DNA of 64,000 nt from a virus (IMGVR_UViG_3300009551_000005:36494-100493); one strand, 5' to 3'. Shown: positions 17,478-60,727, counted from the first letter of the stretch. Notes: a model not told the origin generated them from the letters alone. Made by a program: numbers and translations.

Positions 17478-17539
17478 TTCGGTCTCTCCGACCCGGCTTC
17501 GGCCGGCTCAGAGCGAACGAAACGAAAGGGGAACGACCG

Positions 17540-17914
17540 ATGACGTACCTGGATCTGGTGCAGGCTTTGGAGCTTAAGAACGAGCAGCACATGGTGCTCT
17601 GCGAGATGGCGATGCAGATCGACCGTCTCGAGCGCAACGTTCGCGAGGGCTCGAAGGAGTTCGCGGAGAAGGTCTCGAATTGGCAGAAGCGCATCGAGAG
17701 CGACGACATCATCCACAACACGTTCAGCTACCCGAACATGCTGCTGGAGATCACGAAGGACCAGACGGCGCTCGGAGCGCTTTTTCACTCCTTCCGCATC
17801 ACCTTCAAGGTCATCACTGGGATGACGCTCGAGAAGGCGCAAGAGGAGCTCGTGGAAGCGGAAGGCGAAGGCGTGCCGAGCATCTCCAAGGCCGGCAGGA
17901 GCACTCCGCGATGA
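17540..17914 (+). CDS. Hypothetical protein
   Basis: AAAGGGG RBS; ATGA-coupled to the next gene. Confidence 0.7.
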   Translation: MTYLDLVQALELKNEQHMVLCEMAMQIDRLERNVREGSKEFAEKVSNWQKRIESDDIIHNTFSYPNMLLEITKDQTALGALFHSFRITFKVITGMTLEKAQEELVEAEGEGVPSISKAGRSTPR

Positions 17915-18102
17915 AGCGCACCATCACGCCGCCGCGCGGTACCGCTTCAACGCTTCCCCCCGTTCCGCGTCTCTCGAGCGCAGCCACGCTGCCGACGGTG
18001 CCCGTTCCGCCACCGTCACCGCCCAATTCCTACTGCATCTGGTGCGAGAAGCCCTCGCACGAGTGTTCGTGTGACGGCAACGGAGTCGACCACTGGAGAT
18101 GA
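17911..18102 (+). CDS. Small Pro-rich protein with CxxC
   Basis: ATGA overlaps at both ends. Confidence 0.55.
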   Translation: MKRTITPPRGTASTLPPVPRLSSAATLPTVPVPPPSPPNSYCIWCEKPSHECSCDGNGVDHWR

Positions 18103-52728: not shown

Positions 52729-53307
52729 ATGCCTCGCGCCGTCGGTGATCGATCACCGAAGGGCCCGCACGTCATCGGGCTCGACCTCTCCAAGAACGCG
52801 CCGGCGGCGGTGGCAGTGCCCGCGACGTTCGCCGCCGGCGACGGCGCACTGGCTTGGGGCACGGTGAGGAAGTGGAAACTCGAGGCTCAGGACGACACGC
52901 TCGTGTGGCGCGAGAGGAACGTGCGCGAGGGGCTTCGGTCCTTCCTCGTCTCGCTCGAGCGCGAGGGCTGCAAGATCCAGGGTGTCTACGCAGAGGACTA
53001 CGCGCACACGCAGATGGCTCGGCGCGGCGGGTGGATGCTCTGCGAGGTCGGCGGCGTCGTGCGCGTGATGCTCGCGGAGGTGTTCGGGCAGACCATGCGG
53101 ATGGTGGTCGCCGCCAGCGCTCGCAAGCTCCTTCTCGGCAAGGTCCCGCGGGAGAAGACGTCGGGCATGCCGGTGAAGGAGTACGTCTTTCGCCGGCTCC
53201 GTCAGATGCGGTCGGGGTTCACGGACTTCGATCACGCTGACGCGTTCGTGGTGGCCAACTACGGACTCCACGATCTCGGACTCCCCTGTCTCGCGTCTGA
53301 GGAGTAG
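52729..53307 (+). CDS. RuvC-like Holliday junction resolvase
   Basis: IGLDLS, YAED, DHADAF RNase H-fold acidic residues. Confidence 0.75.
   Translation: MPRAVGDRSPKGPHVIGLDLSKNAPAAVAVPATFAAGDGALAWGTVRKWKLEAQDDTLVWRERNVREGLRSFLVSLEREGCKIQGVYAEDYAHTQMARRGGWMLCEVGGVVRVMLAEVFGQTMRMVVAASARKLLLGKVPREKTSGMPVKEYVFRRLRQMRSGFTDFDHADAFVVANYGLHDLGLPCLASEE
52739..52762. repeat. 24-bp palindrome copy 12 (1 mismatch), CDS N-terminus
   Basis: Encodes AVGDRSPK. Confidence 0.95.
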
Positions 53308-53317
53308 ATTCCTCCAC

Positions 53318-54070
53318 ATGGCGAGGAACGAGAAGGCACGGGAGAAGTCTGCGAAGAAACCGCCCACGCCCAGGGAAGATGGACCGCGCATCGTCGGCGA
53401 CCCGGTGAGGACGCCGCTCGACGACGTGGAAAAGAACCCTTGGAACCCGAACGAGATGACCGCGTTCGAGCAGGAGTCGCTGAAGGACGGTCTTCAGCAC
53501 GACGGCTGGCTCGCTTCGTTGGCGCTCACGATCTGGGGCACCGACGAGAAGGGGCGGAAGAAGAACCTCATTATCGACGGTGAGCACCGGTGGACCGTCG
53601 CGAAGCAGCTCGGGTTCAAGGAAGGTCCGATGGTCTTCCTTCACGGCGTGACCGAGGCGCAGGCCAAGGCGCTCACGATCAAGCTCAACGCCAAGCGCGG
53701 CTCTCCCAACGAAGAGAAGCTCAAGATCATCGTGAAAGAGCTCGAGTTGAAGCTCCAGGTGCCGAACCTCTCGCTCGACCTCGGCATCGAGCAGGAGAAG
53801 CTCTCGATGATGCTGGCCGCGCCTCCCCTGGTCCTCGAGGGAGAGACGCCGCCGGAGAAGAACGGAACACCGCCGGGTGAGATGCCCTCGGGCATGACGT
53901 CGCACGTGCGCATGGTGCAGCTCTTCTTCAACGAGGAGCAGCACAACGAGTTCCTGGCGGCCGTGAAGAAGCTCGGCCCCATCTACTTCAAGAAGGATCC
54001 CAAGAAGCAGACGTCGACCGACATCACCATGGAGGCGATCCGTCGTGCTGTCGCTGCAACTGAGAGCTGA
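53318..54070 (+). CDS. ParB/Srx-like N-terminal domain protein with putative C-terminal ribbon-helix-helix
   Basis: NPWNPNEM, LIIDGEHRW, LNAKRG; C-terminus VRMVQLFF-NEEQHNEFLAAVKKL...STDITMEAIRRAV. Confidence 0.8.
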   Translation: MARNEKAREKSAKKPPTPREDGPRIVGDPVRTPLDDVEKNPWNPNEMTAFEQESLKDGLQHDGWLASLALTIWGTDEKGRKKNLIIDGEHRWTVAKQLGFKEGPMVFLHGVTEAQAKALTIKLNAKRGSPNEEKLKIIVKELELKLQVPNLSLDLGIEQEKLSMMLAAPPLVLEGETPPEKNGTPPGEMPSGMTSHVRMVQLFFNEEQHNEFLAAVKKLGPIYFKKDPKKQTSTDITMEAIRRAVAATES

Positions 54071-54947
54071 GGTCAACGACAAGTCCGTCCAAGCGCTCCT
54101 CGGCAAGTCGGCGGACAAGAAGGACTACAGCGTCTCGCTCACCAACGACGTCTCGGTGTTCAAGGCCAACGGGCAGCGTCTCATCACGCTCCTCCGCGGT
54201 GCCATTCCCGAGGACGAGGCGGAGAGCGCATACCCGTTCCTCCACTGGCTCCGGCACTACCGGACGATGAACCGCGGCAAGTACAGCGGGAAGGAACGAT
54301 TCAAGAAGCTCAAGGGTGACGGGACGATCTCCAACACGAACCACGCGCAGCCGGTGCGTTCGGCCATCGCCGGGTTCTTCGACCGCTACCCGCGCTTTCC
54401 GTACTGCCGCGAGACCGCGTTCGTCACCGAGAAGCCTGAGGAATGGGGCGCGTGCCTGCCGCTCATCCAGCGTGCCGGAGACCTCTTCAAGCTCCACGTC
54501 GCGGACCGGTACAAGGCGCAGCTCGACGCGGCGAAGAAGACGCACCCCGCGTACATCATCAAGGGCACACCGTTCACCACGGTGACCATCAACAACTGCG
54601 TCGCCGGCGGGTATCACACCGACGCCGGCGACTATGGTCCGGGCTTCGGCGTCATCGCGGTCCTCCGCCGCGGGAACTACAAGGGCTGCGAGCTCGTCTT
54701 CCCCAAGTACCGTTGTGCCGTCGATCTCCAGGACCGCGACGTCATCCTCTTCGACCCTCACGAGGTGCACGGCAACGTGCCTTTCGCGGACCAGGAGGGC
54801 GAGGAGGGCAAGGACTGGGAGAGGATCTCGATGGTCTTCTACTTCCGCGCCAAGATGCTGGAGTGCCTCTCGCCGGAAGAGGAGCTCGCGCGAGCGAAGG
54901 CGCGCGGCGCCCTCGAAGCGCCTGAAGAGGAGCTCCCGCAGCCGTAG
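54045..54947 (+). CDS. TET/JBP-family 2OG-Fe(II) dioxygenase
   Basis: PFTTVTINN..GYHTDAGD (HxD), HEVHGN, RISMVFYFR; GFFDRYPRFPYCRET. Confidence 0.88.
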   Translation: MLSLQLRAEVNDKSVQALLGKSADKKDYSVSLTNDVSVFKANGQRLITLLRGAIPEDEAESAYPFLHWLRHYRTMNRGKYSGKERFKKLKGDGTISNTNHAQPVRSAIAGFFDRYPRFPYCRETAFVTEKPEEWGACLPLIQRAGDLFKLHVADRYKAQLDAAKKTHPAYIIKGTPFTTVTINNCVAGGYHTDAGDYGPGFGVIAVLRRGNYKGCELVFPKYRCAVDLQDRDVILFDPHEVHGNVPFADQEGEEGKDWERISMVFYFRAKMLECLSPEEELARAKARGALEAPEEELPQP

Positions 54948-54963
54948 CGTCATCAGGGGAGCC

Positions 54964-55851
54964 GTGAAAGCCAACTCTCTGTTCAAGGACTTCTGCGCCT
55001 TCGCGTGCGGTCAGCTCGCGAGCGGTGACATCGATCCCACCTACCCCGTCCTGAAGCGCTTCTACCGAGTGGAGAAGCTCTCGCGCGAGCAGGCGCTCTG
55101 GCGGACGGTGCTCTATCTCGCCTGGTACGACCTCGGCTCCGCGGAGCGCATCTGGCGCAAGTACCCGAATCCGTTCCTGCCGACGGATTCGGAAGTGCGC
55201 GGGCTTTCGACGGGCACCGAGCGCCGATCGTTCCGGGGCAACACCAAGGTGCTCGACTTCCTGGGTGCGCTCCTTTCGCGCGCATCGCTCGAAGGAGGCT
55301 CGCTCGAGAAGTGGGTCGACTCGTTCTTCGTCGACGATCCGACGAAGGGGTGGGACCGCGCGCGCGAGGAGCTTCAGGAGCTCGCGTTCGCGGGACCTTG
55401 GGCGAGCTACAAGTGGGCCGACCTCCTGAAGCACGTGCACGACGCGCCTATCACCGCGAGCGACATCGGCGTCGGCGGACGCGGAGAGACCGCGGGGCCG
55501 ATCCCGGGGATGGTGCGTCTCACCGGGCTGCCTTGGCAGGAGTGCGCCAACGACGTGAAGAAGCAGGTCGCGCTGCTCAAGCGCGCGCAGGATGCTGGCG
55601 TGCCCTTCAACGGTCTCGACCAGCTCGAGACGGCGCTCTGCGACTTCAACTCCTTGTGCAAAGGCGGCTACTACGTCGGGCACGACATCGACACGCAGAT
55701 GAAGCATCTCGAGCACGTGAAGGACCGCGGACTTTGGGATGCGCGCGTGGTTTTCGAGGACAGGTTCCGCGGCGAGGTCTCCGGCGGATGGTTCGGTGTG
55801 CGCAAGGAGCTGAAGACGCTCTACCGCGATCAGAAAGTGCTCATCACTTGA
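54964..55851 (+). CDS. Amino acid:DNA transferase (aGPT-Pplase2-like, glycosylase fold)
   Basis: GDIDPTY, TERRSFRG, GPWASYKWADL, ETALCDF..GYYVGHDID. Confidence 0.8.
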   Translation: MKANSLFKDFCAFACGQLASGDIDPTYPVLKRFYRVEKLSREQALWRTVLYLAWYDLGSAERIWRKYPNPFLPTDSEVRGLSTGTERRSFRGNTKVLDFLGALLSRASLEGGSLEKWVDSFFVDDPTKGWDRAREELQELAFAGPWASYKWADLLKHVHDAPITASDIGVGGRGETAGPIPGMVRLTGLPWQECANDVKKQVALLKRAQDAGVPFNGLDQLETALCDFNSLCKGGYYVGHDIDTQMKHLEHVKDRGLWDARVVFEDRFRGEVSGGWFGVRKELKTLYRDQKVLIT

Positions 55852-56738
55852 TTCACCTCGAGGGCATGGGTATCGTGGGCTCCATCTTGGCGTGGCACCT
55901 CCTCAACGCCGGGCGCTCCTTCACTTGGCACGACATCGACGCGAAGGTGCGCGCGTGGACTGCGTCGACGGGCGCTATCTACCCGAGCGGAGACGTCTTC
56001 GACGCGATGAACTACGAGGTCTGGTCGGACTGGTGCCACGGTGAAGCTCCGTGGGAGCGCTTCATCGGCCGGCACTACGAGACCTCGGGCTGGTGGTACT
56101 GCACGAAGAGCGCTCCCCACGGCGCCAAGGGCAAGCCGGTGGCGAGGTTCGGCATGCTGCACCGCGGGCCAGCGCCGTCGATGCACTTCAACGCGCAGAG
56201 CTTCGTGCCCGCGACGCGTGCCTACTTCCAGAAGATGCGCCGCGAGGGAACGCCGTCGGGCGCGCGCAAGGTCATCACCCACGGCTTCAGTCAGCGTCTC
56301 GACCACTACGTGTGGGGCTGGACGCGGAAGGTGAAGCTCGATTGGACAGCGCTCCGTCCGTACGAACGACACGAGCGCGCGGCTGTCTATCTCCGGCGCG
56401 GCCGCTTCGTCATGGCGTACGCGTACCCCATCCCCGGTGAGCCTTGGTGGTACGCGGGTTCGAACCTCATCGTGCAGAAGAAGGCGAGATCGTTGGTCAT
56501 CCCGCCGAAGTACGAGACGTGGAAACGGAACTTCGAGGAGCTCTCCGGTGGCGCGGTGCGCATCGTGGAGGAAGGTCCGTTCATCGAGGGATGGCGACCC
56601 GCCGGGGCAGATCTCGACGGAGACCTCGTGCGCGAGATGGACGGCGCGCTCGTCCTCAAGCCGTTCTGGAACAGTGGCATCCGTCACTCCCCGTTGACGA
56701 TGCGCGCGGCAATGGACGCGCTCGGAGGTGCAAGATGA
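55848..56738 (+). CDS. FAD-dependent oxidoreductase/lyase (DAO-like)
   Basis: TTGA-coupled start; GMGIVG dinucleotide fold, AWTASTGA, EGWRP, NSGIRHSP. Confidence 0.78.
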   Translation: MIHLEGMGIVGSILAWHLLNAGRSFTWHDIDAKVRAWTASTGAIYPSGDVFDAMNYEVWSDWCHGEAPWERFIGRHYETSGWWYCTKSAPHGAKGKPVARFGMLHRGPAPSMHFNAQSFVPATRAYFQKMRREGTPSGARKVITHGFSQRLDHYVWGWTRKVKLDWTALRPYERHERAAVYLRRGRFVMAYAYPIPGEPWWYAGSNLIVQKKARSLVIPPKYETWKRNFEELSGGAVRIVEEGPFIEGWRPAGADLDGDLVREMDGALVLKPFWNSGIRHSPLTMRAAMDALGGAR

Positions 56739-57244
56739 TCGTGTTTCTCGTCGGAGCTCCTGGAGTCGGAAAGACCACGCTGGCGCGTCAGCTCATCGGA
56801 CCGGACGCGTACCTGGTGCCCAAGCCGAAGTGGACGGTCGGCAAGATCGTCGCCGCGGGTCACTATAACGGCGGCACGTTCGATGGCGCGGACACGGTGC
56901 CCTACAACGGCGTCGAGGACTGCCTTCGTTTCTGGGAGCAGCAGCTCGAAGGCAAGGACACGCTTTTCGACGGTGACCGCTTCTCGCATGAGAAGGTCGT
57001 GAAGTGGGCGCGCGAGAAGACGCTCCTCGTGAAGTGCATCTATCTCCATGCGCTGCCGGACACGCTCGCGGCGCGGAGGAAGCAGCGCGGCTCGAATCAG
57101 AACGAGACATGGCTCAAGGGGCGCATGACCAAGGCCGCGAACTTCCAGAACCTCTTCGCATCGAGGGACATCGTGCGCGTTCACGCAGACGTCTCGCCGG
57201 AGGAGATCTACAAGCGCGTCGTCGGAGAGTTCGGGTGGCGCTGA
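56735..57244 (+). CDS. P-loop kinase, 5-hydroxymethyluracil-DNA kinase-like
   Basis: GAPGVGKTT, FDGADT, DGDRF, RGSNQNETWLKGRMTK. Confidence 0.78.
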   Translation: MIVFLVGAPGVGKTTLARQLIGPDAYLVPKPKWTVGKIVAAGHYNGGTFDGADTVPYNGVEDCLRFWEQQLEGKDTLFDGDRFSHEKVVKWAREKTLLVKCIYLHALPDTLAARRKQRGSNQNETWLKGRMTKAANFQNLFASRDIVRVHADVSPEEIYKRVVGEFGWR

Positions 57245-57603
57245 CGAAGATCATTCGCAACGTCCTCGAGAAGGCGTTCGGCAGGTTCTATGAGGGCCCC
57301 GAGTGTCCCGAGCGTATCGCCGACGAGGCGGTGGAGTTCGCGAACAGGAACCCGATCGCCACGCGCGAGGACTGGGTGATCTTCGCGCAGGACCTCGCGC
57401 GTGAGGCGTACAAGAGCGGGTGGCAGCGCGGCTTCGAGCACGTGGAGCGCGCTGAGACGCGATTCCCTTGGCAGGAGGGGATGCCCGACGACATCGCCAA
57501 CGGCGTCGACCCAGACTGGCGGGCAAACACGAGCGGCATCGACCTCCACAATCCGCACGGTCCTGTGCTGGTTGAAGAGGAGGCGATGGGCGATGACGAC
57601 TGA
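57235..57603 (+). CDS. Hypothetical protein
   Basis: Overlapping GTG start with GGAG RBS. Confidence 0.6.
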   Translation: MALTKIIRNVLEKAFGRFYEGPECPERIADEAVEFANRNPIATREDWVIFAQDLAREAYKSGWQRGFEHVERAETRFPWQEGMPDDIANGVDPDWRANTSGIDLHNPHGPVLVEEEAMGDDD

Positions 57604-59255: not shown

Positions 59256-59505
59256 CGAGCTGAAGGTCATCCCGATGCCTCATCGCTATGCGCCTCCGTG
59301 GGCGCTCTGGGTGGTGGGTGTCTATTCGGACCGCGACGAAGATGGGGAGCTTTACTGGAGCGCGGAGTGCCGGCGGTGCGGTGCGCACTATCCGCCTCAG
59401 ATGAAGGGCGCGCCGGCGGCGCTCAAGTGCACCTCCGGCATGGTGCGCCGGAGGATCGGCTTGTTCGCGTCGGACCATGTGAAGTGCGAGGAGAAGAAGA
59501 CATGA
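59248..59505 (+). CDS. Small zinc-binding hypothetical protein
   Basis: GGAG RBS; CRRC...C...H..C. Confidence 0.55.
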   Translation: MADELKVIPMPHRYAPPWALWVVGVYSDRDEDGELYWSAECRRCGAHYPPQMKGAPAALKCTSGMVRRRIGLFASDHVKCEEKKT

Positions 59506-60353
59506 CCGGAATGGTGAATCAGTGGGGAATGCAGGGGACTGAGAAGAAGCTCCTCGACCACGGCTACGTGCGGGTCATCGAGCTCTGGGGAAGCGATCAG
59601 CGCGTCGTTGAGAGCGCGCGCATGTCCACCGGCAAGGACTTCAAGGGGTGGGGCCCGCACGAGGGCGTCTGCAAGCGTTGCGGCGCGAAGGAGTCCGAGG
59701 CGAAGGAGAAGGCCGTCCAAGTCGGCAAGGCGCGCTCCTTCTGCGAGGAGGATGTGGCGGGCAACCATGATTGGGAGCGGAAGCCCGGCGATGAGAAGCT
59801 CCTCGGGTACCTCTGGAAGAATCAGCACACGACGCCGTTCGAGATGGCGGGTCTCACCGTGGAGGTCCAGGCGCCGATCTTCGTCTTCCGCGAGTGGCAC
59901 CGGCACCGCACGCAGAGCTACAGCGAGGCGTCCGCGCGCTACGAGCCGTTGCCCGACCTGAACTACGTGCCCTCGATTGAGCGCTGCCTGATGGGCGGAG
60001 GTCATCTCACGAAGCAGGCGGGCAGCGTTGCCGGCGCGGAGGAGCTCAACGCAGCCGGCGCGGAGCTCTTCCGCCATCTCCTCATCGAGGAGTACGAGCG
60101 GTGCCAGCAGACCTACGAGCGCGCGCTGAAGGGAGGCATCCCCAAGGAGCTCGCGCGTCTCGTCTTGCCCGTCGGTCGTTACTCCAAGATGCGCGCGAGC
60201 ACGGATCTTCTGAACTGGCTGAAGTTCCTCAAGCTGCGCATGGACGCGACCGCGCAGTGGGAGATCCGCCAGTACGCCGAAGCCGTCGGCGAGATTGTCG
60301 CGTTCAACTTCCCGCGCGTGTGGGAGTTCTTCCTCGAGTCGAGGGCAAAGTGA
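59502..60353 (+). CDS. thyX: Flavin-dependent thymidylate synthase
   Basis: HTTPFE, REWHRHRTQSYSEASARY (RHRx7S), KELARLVLP, AQWEIR. Confidence 0.95.
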   Translation: MTGMVNQWGMQGTEKKLLDHGYVRVIELWGSDQRVVESARMSTGKDFKGWGPHEGVCKRCGAKESEAKEKAVQVGKARSFCEEDVAGNHDWERKPGDEKLLGYLWKNQHTTPFEMAGLTVEVQAPIFVFREWHRHRTQSYSEASARYEPLPDLNYVPSIERCLMGGGHLTKQAGSVAGAEELNAAGAELFRHLLIEEYERCQQTYERALKGGIPKELARLVLPVGRYSKMRASTDLLNWLKFLKLRMDATAQWEIRQYAEAVGEIVAFNFPRVWEFFLESRAK

Positions 60354-60727
60354 GCGAGCTTCCCGGGAGGCGGAACGACAAGGGAAAGTGGCGCTTCTCG
60401 CTCTTTCCGTTCGACGCGCTCCGCGCGGTGGCGAACGTCCTCGAGCACGGCGCTCGCAAGTATGCGGAGTGGAACTGGCTCGACATCCCAGATTCCAGGG
60501 AGCGCTGTCTCAACTCCCTCATGCGCCACACGTTCGCGTGGTGGCAGGGCGAGACCTGGGACTTCGGCACGCCGGAGGAGCCCGGAACGGGAGAGCGTCA
60601 CCTCGCGTGCATGGCCTGCAACGTCATCTTCCTGCTGACGCTCGAGATCCGCGGGAAGATCGACTCTGAGCCCAGGGTGCAACCGGACTGGTGGCGCGCC
60701 GTCGGTGATCGATCACCGACGGCGTAG
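60350..60727 (+). CDS. DUF5664-type dATP/dGTP diphosphohydrolase domain protein
   Basis: NDKGKWRFSLFP..L..VANVLEHGARKYAEWNW, LMRH, HLACMACN. Confidence 0.8.
   Translation: MSELPGRRNDKGKWRFSLFPFDALRAVANVLEHGARKYAEWNWLDIPDSRERCLNSLMRHTFAWWQGETWDFGTPEEPGTGERHLACMACNVIFLLTLEIRGKIDSEPRVQPDWWRAVGDRSPTA
60699..60722. repeat. 24-bp palindrome copy 14 (perfect), last codons of CDS, adjacent to a GCGGCATC motif
   Basis: Encodes AVGDRSPTA*; GCGGCATC at 60727-60734. Confidence 0.97.

Follow-up and report, generated by a model that had tools for sequence, protein, structure and literature searches.

A candidate operon of at least five genes for post-replicative thymine hypermodification in a 100-kb virus genome

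Can a virus hypermodify thymine (T) entirely within its DNA, after ordinary T has been incorporated, and which of its genes would carry the route? The question is raised by a 64,000-nucleotide stretch of viral DNA (the window), bases 36494-100493 of the 100,493-bp IMG/VR virus record IMGVR_UViG_3300009551_000005, which has direct terminal repeats, an estimated completeness of 100%, a G+C content of 65% and nearly all of its genes on the + strand. An earlier note on the window had described four consecutive, coupled genes at 54045-57244 as such a route, made up of a TET/JBP dioxygenase, a kinase, an amino-acid transferase and a flavoenzyme. We find it reasonably likely that an operon of at least five genes hypermodifies thymine post-replicatively at this locus, via 5-hydroxymethyluracil (5hmU) to 5-aminomethyl-deoxyuridine (5-aminomethyl-dU).

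Reading of the open reading frames (ORFs) bears out the four genes, all of which are real and lie consecutively on the + strand at 54045-57244, though in the order dioxygenase, transferase, flavoenzyme, kinase; the kinase, placed second in the title of the earlier note, is the last of them. The unit also starts one gene earlier, with a ParB-like gene of 250 aa (53318-54070, + strand) that the note had omitted and that overlaps the start of the dioxygenase gene by 26 nt. The TET/JBP 2-oxoglutarate/Fe(II) dioxygenase, a putative thymine dioxygenase of 300 aa (54045-54947, + strand), begins with GTG at 54045, a start we prefer because homologues align from residue 2. After a gap of 16 nt, in which AGGGGAG precedes GTG 54964, comes an amino acid:DNA transferase (AADT, formerly aGPT-Pplase2) of 295 aa (54964-55851, + strand). 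A TTGA overlap at 55848-55851 joins it to a flavin adenine dinucleotide (FAD)-dependent amine oxidase-like protein of 296 aa (55848-56738, + strand, TTG start), and an ATGA overlap at 56735-56738 leads from there into a P-loop kinase of 169 aa, a putative 5hmU-in-DNA kinase (56735-57244, + strand). TTG 55848 is the more likely start of the flavoenzyme because His3, in the first beta-strand, is invariant in the family alignment; the public gene call, 290 aa from ATG 55866, cuts off this invariant strand. We conclude that these genes, the ParB-like gene among them, belong to a single operon with at least five members, which starts one gene before the dioxygenase.

The dioxygenase matches PF12851 (Tet_JBP) at 75.3 bits against a cut-off of 34.9, and its profile matches human TET2 over the HxD and RIS motifs. 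The iron triad (H191, D193 and H242), the 2-oxoglutarate-binding arginine (R260) and C274 are invariant across 36 homologues, in which a C-terminal extension, SPxEELxRAK, is conserved after C274. The ParB-like protein matches phrog_2159 (E 8e-18) and, weakly, the Pfam family ParB_N (17.5 bits), and its family profile matches ParB/Noc/Spo0J structures (E ~1e-3). In the AlphaFold2 (AF2) model, with a predicted local distance difference test score (pLDDT) of 87.5, a ParB N-terminal nucleotide-binding domain is followed by ~50 helical residues, a disordered linker and a C-terminal strand-helix-helix domain, and the top Foldseek matches are ParB, Noc and KorB over ~145 columns. A subclass of ParB-dependent T-dioxygenases (5mYOX clade C1) needs ParB on double-stranded DNA. 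It is recognised by an adjacent ParB gene, by a C-terminal extension beyond the last Cys common to it and the other subclass, by having no C5-methyltransferase gene nearby and by its association with genes for P-loop kinases and AADTs (O'Toole et al., PNAS 2026; PMC13229309). The present locus resembles those pathways in each respect: the TET/JBP gene, whose product has the extension, is immediately preceded by the ParB-like gene, kinase and AADT genes are linked to the pair, and no C5-methyltransferase is present. The predicted domain plan of the ParB-like protein also follows that of the subclass, with nucleotide-binding and C-terminal domains and apparently no full helix-turn-helix DNA-binding domain. 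All of the subclass's marks that can be read from sequence and gene neighbourhood are found here. By analogy, the ParB-like protein is probably the activator of the adjacent dioxygenase, and the dioxygenase itself is probably a thymine dioxygenase that gives 5hmU in DNA. Among the 80 closest dioxygenase loci in IMG/VR, a ParB homologue is present at 57, mostly directly upstream, a kinase at 44 and an AADT at 30. Prediction of a complex between dioxygenase and ParB-like protein returned a median score of 0.00, which speaks neither for nor against binding.

That thymine is the substrate is also suggested by the other genes of the virus. Profile searches of the whole 100,493-bp genome detected no C5-methyltransferase (PF00145) and no ThyA-like gene or hydroxymethylase (PF00303), which agrees with what the earlier note had reported for the window and holds equally for the rest of the genome. 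The flavin-dependent thymidylate synthase ThyX, also reported by that note, lies nearby on the + strand (59484-60353, start somewhere in 59298-59574; PF02511, 141-142 bits), and a dCMP deaminase gene is found within the first 36 kb of the genome, outside the window. The presence of both points to a supply of ordinary dTTP and to normal T incorporation. Co-occurrence within the flavoenzyme family provides a further line of evidence: of 24 viral records with a member of this family, eight encode Tet_JBP, 12 a ThyA-like protein, none both and four neither (three of these four are fragments). At 22 of the 24 loci the flavoenzyme gene is accompanied by AADT and kinase genes that share its strand, and the usual arrangement is AADT, flavoenzyme, kinase. 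Given this mutual exclusivity, TET and the hydroxymethylase look like alternative 5hmU suppliers to one downstream module, an idea inferred previously by Lee et al. 2021 (PMC8989533). A C5-methyltransferase occurs in one of 48 records with close TET relatives, ~40 kb from the TET gene.

The transferase and the kinase are both recognised by Pfam. The AADT matches PF18724 (ADDT) at 38 bits against a cut-off of 26.2 and gives a weak match to the solved AADT structure 25qc_A. Its residues D24, Y51, Y55, E86, W146, K150, E222, T223, C226 and D241 are those of the active site of gp46 from Pseudomonas phage PaMx11, a protein of solved structure, and they are invariant or nearly so among 25 sequences. 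In gp46 the equivalent residues serve in glycine binding (D24/W146/K150), metal binding (E222/T223) and as the nucleophile (C226), and the residues of the phosphate pocket are kept as well (PMC11472151). The kinase matches PF18751 (Ploopntkinase3) at 32 bits against a cut-off of 27, has the Walker A motif GAPGVGKT, matches phrog_800 (E 2.7e-11) and aligns pairwise with PaMx11 gp49, a validated 5-hydroxymethyl-deoxyuridine (5-hmdU) DNA kinase, at E 7e-4. Nearly every related locus has a homologue of it close to the AADT and flavoenzyme genes, and from this gene context its substrate is probably 5hmU in DNA.

The flavoenzyme can be identified as such only from a predicted structure. It has no Pfam, PHROG or NCBIfam match, and searches of its sequence and profile against Protein Data Bank (PDB) chains returned nothing significant. 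Its AF2 model (pLDDT 94) has a two-domain GR2-type FAD oxidase fold that matches D-amino-acid oxidase, glycine oxidase, CmiS2, iminodiacetate oxidase and MnmC with Z scores of 19-23 over ~275 residues. Several of these enzymes (glycine oxidase, iminodiacetate oxidase, CmiS2 and MnmC) cleave N-carboxymethyl amines, and the MnmC oxidase converts 5-carboxymethylaminomethyluridine (cmnm5U) to 5-aminomethyluridine (nm5U) in tRNA. The PaMx11 gp47 structures 8Z2O and 8Z79 were not among the matches listed, the best 50 of each fold search. The family is tight and isolated, with 217 clusters at E <= 1e-3 and 190 at E <= 1e-30 (clusters at 50% identity from 1.84 billion representative proteins), and its invariant motifs are GxGxxG (G6, G8 and G11), GWRP and WNSGIRH. 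Two natural fusions bear on its role: in P0372 (456 aa) the flavoenzyme is joined to a GNAT acetyltransferase, and in P0428 (643 aa) to a P-loop kinase that weakly matches 5-hmdU kinases. These fusions mirror PaMx11 gp47-gp48-gp49 and support a matching role; acetylation requires a free amine, such as the oxidase reaction would leave. On the basis of modelled fold, gene position and fusions, the flavoenzyme is probably an aminoacyl-thymine oxidase that yields 5-aminomethyl-dU. The flavoenzyme of the earlier note is upheld in this predicted fold, but not its placement with gp47 in the DAO family: it belongs to a separate family that has no Pfam model.

Comparison with known systems helps to place the locus. 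The PaMx11 pathway, in which gp46-gp49 lead to 5-acetylaminomethyl-dU, likewise has AADT, FAD enzyme and kinase genes in one operon, with identical AADT active-site residues, and its flavoenzyme gp47, which acts on glycyl-thymine in DNA (PMC8989533), resembles ours, as modelled, in superfamily fold and also in compact size (286 versus 296 aa) and gene position. It differs in its source of 5hmdU, made by a ThyA-like hydroxymethylase (gp51) ahead of replication, whereas here the front end is TET plus ParB; in having an acetyltransferase (gp48), which is missing here; and in a flavoenzyme of another sequence family and a kinase of another Pfam family. Closer in content are the Rhodococcus phage Tonitrus and seven Gordonia phages, in which we found all five families (ParB-like, TET-like, AADT, Ploopntkinase3 kinase and flavoenzyme). 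Tonitrus and Gordonia Sourvirus phages such as CaiB have flavoenzymes 31-34% identical to ours, mostly annotated 'hypothetical protein', and their kinases score 171-199 bits on Ploopntkinase3; their cassettes differ in having the kinase before the flavoenzyme and in lying at the left end of the genome beside the terminase. A 2025 note on Tonitrus names the genes as a thymidine hypermodification system (PMC11955845), with no product reported. The MnmC oxidase domain shares the fold (Z ~20) and the proposed chemistry on glycyl-methyl-uracil but differs in its tRNA substrate, its methyltransferase fusion and the lack of detectable sequence similarity. The post-replicative route was proposed by Lee et al. 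2021 (PMC8989533) and its T-oxidation step was shown by O'Toole et al. 2026, whose study demonstrates that step only and whose main text is silent on flavin or FAD enzymes in these gene neighbourhoods (PMC13229309). The pathway type is already described, and the present locus is a further example of it.

Taken together, these data suggest the following scheme. ThyX and dCMP deaminase would supply ordinary dTTP, and replication would use T. The TET/JBP dioxygenase, aided by the ParB-like protein, would then oxidise T in DNA to 5hmU, whose hydroxyl the P-loop kinase would phosphorylate to give 5-phosphomethyl-dU. The AADT would swap the phosphate for an amino acid, in all likelihood glycine, attached through its alpha-amino group, to give glycyl-T, and the FAD oxidase would oxidise the N-C(alpha) bond so that imine hydrolysis frees glyoxylate and leaves 5-aminomethyl-dU. 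This would be the final base, given that no acetyltransferase was found in the genome: Pfam scans of 103 ORFs detected no GNAT, which agrees with the earlier note's statement that none is adjacent, and no glycosyltransferase, radical S-adenosylmethionine (SAM) enzyme, pyridoxal phosphate (PLP) enzyme or amidotransferase either. On this basis 5-aminomethyl-dU is the most economical end product. The scheme joins what was computed at this locus (gene structure, domain identities, active-site residues, flavoenzyme fold and co-occurrence patterns) to what is carried over from the literature, namely T oxidation with its ParB dependence and the kinase, AADT and FAD chemistry of PaMx11; from these we infer what each of the present proteins would catalyse, which amino acid is used, what base results and how far and when the DNA is modified. 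The core of the earlier note's reading, in which T is incorporated and then oxidised by TET/JBP, phosphorylated, aminoacylated and trimmed, is favoured because C5-methyltransferase and hydroxymethylase are lacking, TET and ThyA exclude each other, the gp46 residues are kept and the flavoenzyme has a glycine-oxidase/MnmC-type fold; that note had left out the ParB activator, however, and the route is not new.

Several observations weigh against this scheme. The flavoenzyme is found at just 3 of the 80 closest TET loci, an uncommon combination, and Pfam recognises nothing in ~75 of the 103 ORFs, which leaves room for an extra modifying enzyme such as the 122-aa product of the gene after the kinase. 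Of the profiles that the earlier note had proposed as checks, Tet_JBP, PF18724 and Ploopntkinase3 matched at the scores given above and DAO did not. The P-loop kinase assignment stands with Ploopntkinase3 and Walker A, but the kinase belongs to PF18751 and has no match at E <= 0.01 to PF18748 (HMUDK_HMUD1), the family of validated 5-hmdU DNA kinases, on which the validated PaMx11 gp49 itself scores merely 18 bits. For the flavoenzyme, hhalign recovered the Rossmann motif only, with a probability of 21.6% against gp47 alone and 0.4% against a five-sequence gp47 family alignment, and Pfam DAO (PF01266), which gives gp47 57 bits, does not match it. Being in a sequence family separate from that of gp47, the flavoenzyme may catalyse a different reaction, using another amino-acid adduct as substrate or performing another oxidation; in that case, or if an extra enzyme acts, the same front end would still lead to aminoacyl-T and the final base would be something other than 5-aminomethyl-dU. 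Such an outcome fits with an AADT whose specificity is unreadable from sequence (the checked residues are the same in all 25 AADTs, whatever their partners) and with the conserved 122-aa gene coupled to the kinase in this lineage. We regard it as unlikely, since the closest folds are N-substituted-glycine oxidases, one family member is fused to an acetyltransferase in a pairing that recalls PaMx11, and the invariant G-W-R250-P falls opposite G-I-R-P of gp47, whose Arg242 binds carboxylate (PMC11472151), this last seen with low confidence, and only when a global alignment of negligible probability was forced.

A different alternative keeps the chemistry as proposed but limits its extent to sparse, sequence-specific marking for regulation, replication or packaging, in place of bulk protection from restriction. 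The published ParB-dependent enzymes prefer NTR and converted merely 1-35% of T in E. coli, a result that also counts against the scheme above, and their authors raise the possibility of such marking (PMC13229309); the operon moreover has a promoter-like motif in common with virion genes (see below). Yet the AADT/kinase pathways of M6, ViI and PaMx11 modify much of T and give nuclease protection (PMC8989533, PMC5889632), and no target limit is evident in the sequence, and we consider sparse marking rather unlikely. Far less credible is a dioxygenase that acts on 5-methylcytosine (5mC) made by a host or unrecognised methyltransferase, with the downstream enzymes working on 5-hydroxymethylcytosine. 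The TET/JBP family does include phage 5mC dioxygenases, and 5mYOX97 and 5mYOX176 oxidise 5mC in vitro too (PMC13229309), but the complete genome has no C5-methyltransferase and only the one record among 48 relatives has one, TET replaces ThyA-type hydroxymethylases and never dCMP-type routes in records that share the downstream module, and the AADT and kinase chemistry is known for the uracil ring only; we consider this reading highly improbable. The post-replicative thymine route to 5-aminomethyl-dU is the reading we favour.

The operon may extend further downstream. A 122-aa gene of no known function (57235-57603, + strand) overlaps the kinase stop by 10 nt at its start and encodes a protein with an acidic tail that has no Pfam or NCBIfam match. 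A gene with 42% identity occupies the same position in a related 99.6-kb phage (L007, 9425-9763), and no counterpart was present in the other cassettes searched; the gene may be a sixth operon member, a lineage-specific accessory. The surroundings form a replication and recombination module, with a primase, two RecA-like proteins, PolB, a UvrD-type helicase, an Mre11-like phosphoesterase, an SbcC-like ATPase and RuvC, and the gene upstream of the ParB-like gene encodes a RuvC-like resolvase by PHROGs. For the operon, blastn against phage genomes found nothing beyond one 75-bp chance-level match, and NCBIfam supplied no useful name for any of its proteins. PolB has only distant matches among phage records (23-28% identity) and gives no host clue; the host-like RecA, compared with one genome per species, has one weak match of 35% identity in a Gaiellaceae metagenome-assembled genome, which weakly hints at a host in the Actinomycetota.

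Three further observations concern nucleotide and DNA modification genes. The related phage has its ThyX match in two pieces, L007 10907-11257 and 12077-12505, with ~820 bp between them, which points to the insertion of, for example, an intron, intein or homing endonuclease. Directly after ThyX in the window (60320-60727) lies a gene for a 135-aa, MazZ-like protein with a dATP/dGTP diphosphohydrolase N-terminal domain (PF18909, 95.7 bits); a reading of this gene as part of a Z-genome (2-aminoadenine) system was rejected, as there is no PurZ (PF00709) in the genome. An MT-A70 family adenine methyltransferase (71.9 bits) is encoded outside the window, at genome positions 17485-17964, and may provide this phage with a second DNA modification.

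How the operon would be expressed is suggested by the promoter-like motif TAGATT-N7-ATG (53305-53320, + strand), the sole match to this pattern in the window. The earlier note had assigned it to the operon and to a structural-gene class; the motif exists and the class is real, but it stands directly before the ATG of the ParB-like gene and not before TET, and its TAG also terminates the RuvC-like gene upstream. Genome-wide, the pattern TAGNNT-N6-8-ATG/GTG occurs in 14 copies on the + strand against 2.9 expected under a first-order Markov model. Thirteen of these lie exactly at the starts of ORFs of >=114 aa, without a Shine-Dalgarno sequence, and 11 of the 13 fall within genome 13.8-59.5 kb (13784-59477), the half with recognisable virion genes; the copy at the ParB-like gene is the only one in the replication half. 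This is a real, leaderless-like motif class, which would act as a promoter and, by its association with virion genes, would place the operon late in infection.

A second repeated element is a palindrome with the core GGTGATCGATCACC, of which the 100-kb genome contains 18 perfect copies, including those at window positions 52739 and 58176; three of them immediately precede TAGNNT promoter-like boxes. In the related 99.6-kb phage (L007) the repeated element is another palindrome, GAAAAGCGCTTTTC, present in 17 copies, against zero for its reversed control. The data do not support a wider association of ParB-TET cassettes with repeated palindromes: across ~100 loci, a repeated 14-bp palindrome was seen in this phage and its close relative only. 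One could speculate that in this phage lineage the ParB-like protein binds the dispersed palindrome via its C-terminal, ribbon-helix-helix-like domain, loads or spreads from there and recruits the dioxygenase, a reading we think improbable. If true, it would amount to parS-like self-marking, with hypermodification confined to phage DNA. The flavoenzyme might, besides, yield an undescribed base.

New in the present analysis are the function assigned to the flavoenzyme family, the exclusivity of TET and ThyA in the records of that family, and the corrected operon. Hypermodification initiated by a T-dioxygenase has been established only recently, and experiment so far covers the oxidation step alone. 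Enzymes of this kind are of interest to those who build tools for labelling or mapping thymine or 5hmU in DNA, and the occurrence of the five genes in cultured Gordonia and Rhodococcus phages makes the prediction directly testable. The locus presents a compact and complete candidate pathway in which the predicted 5-aminomethyl-dU would be made wholly on the DNA polymer, and it offers a likely function for a Pfam-less flavoenzyme family of ~217 clusters.

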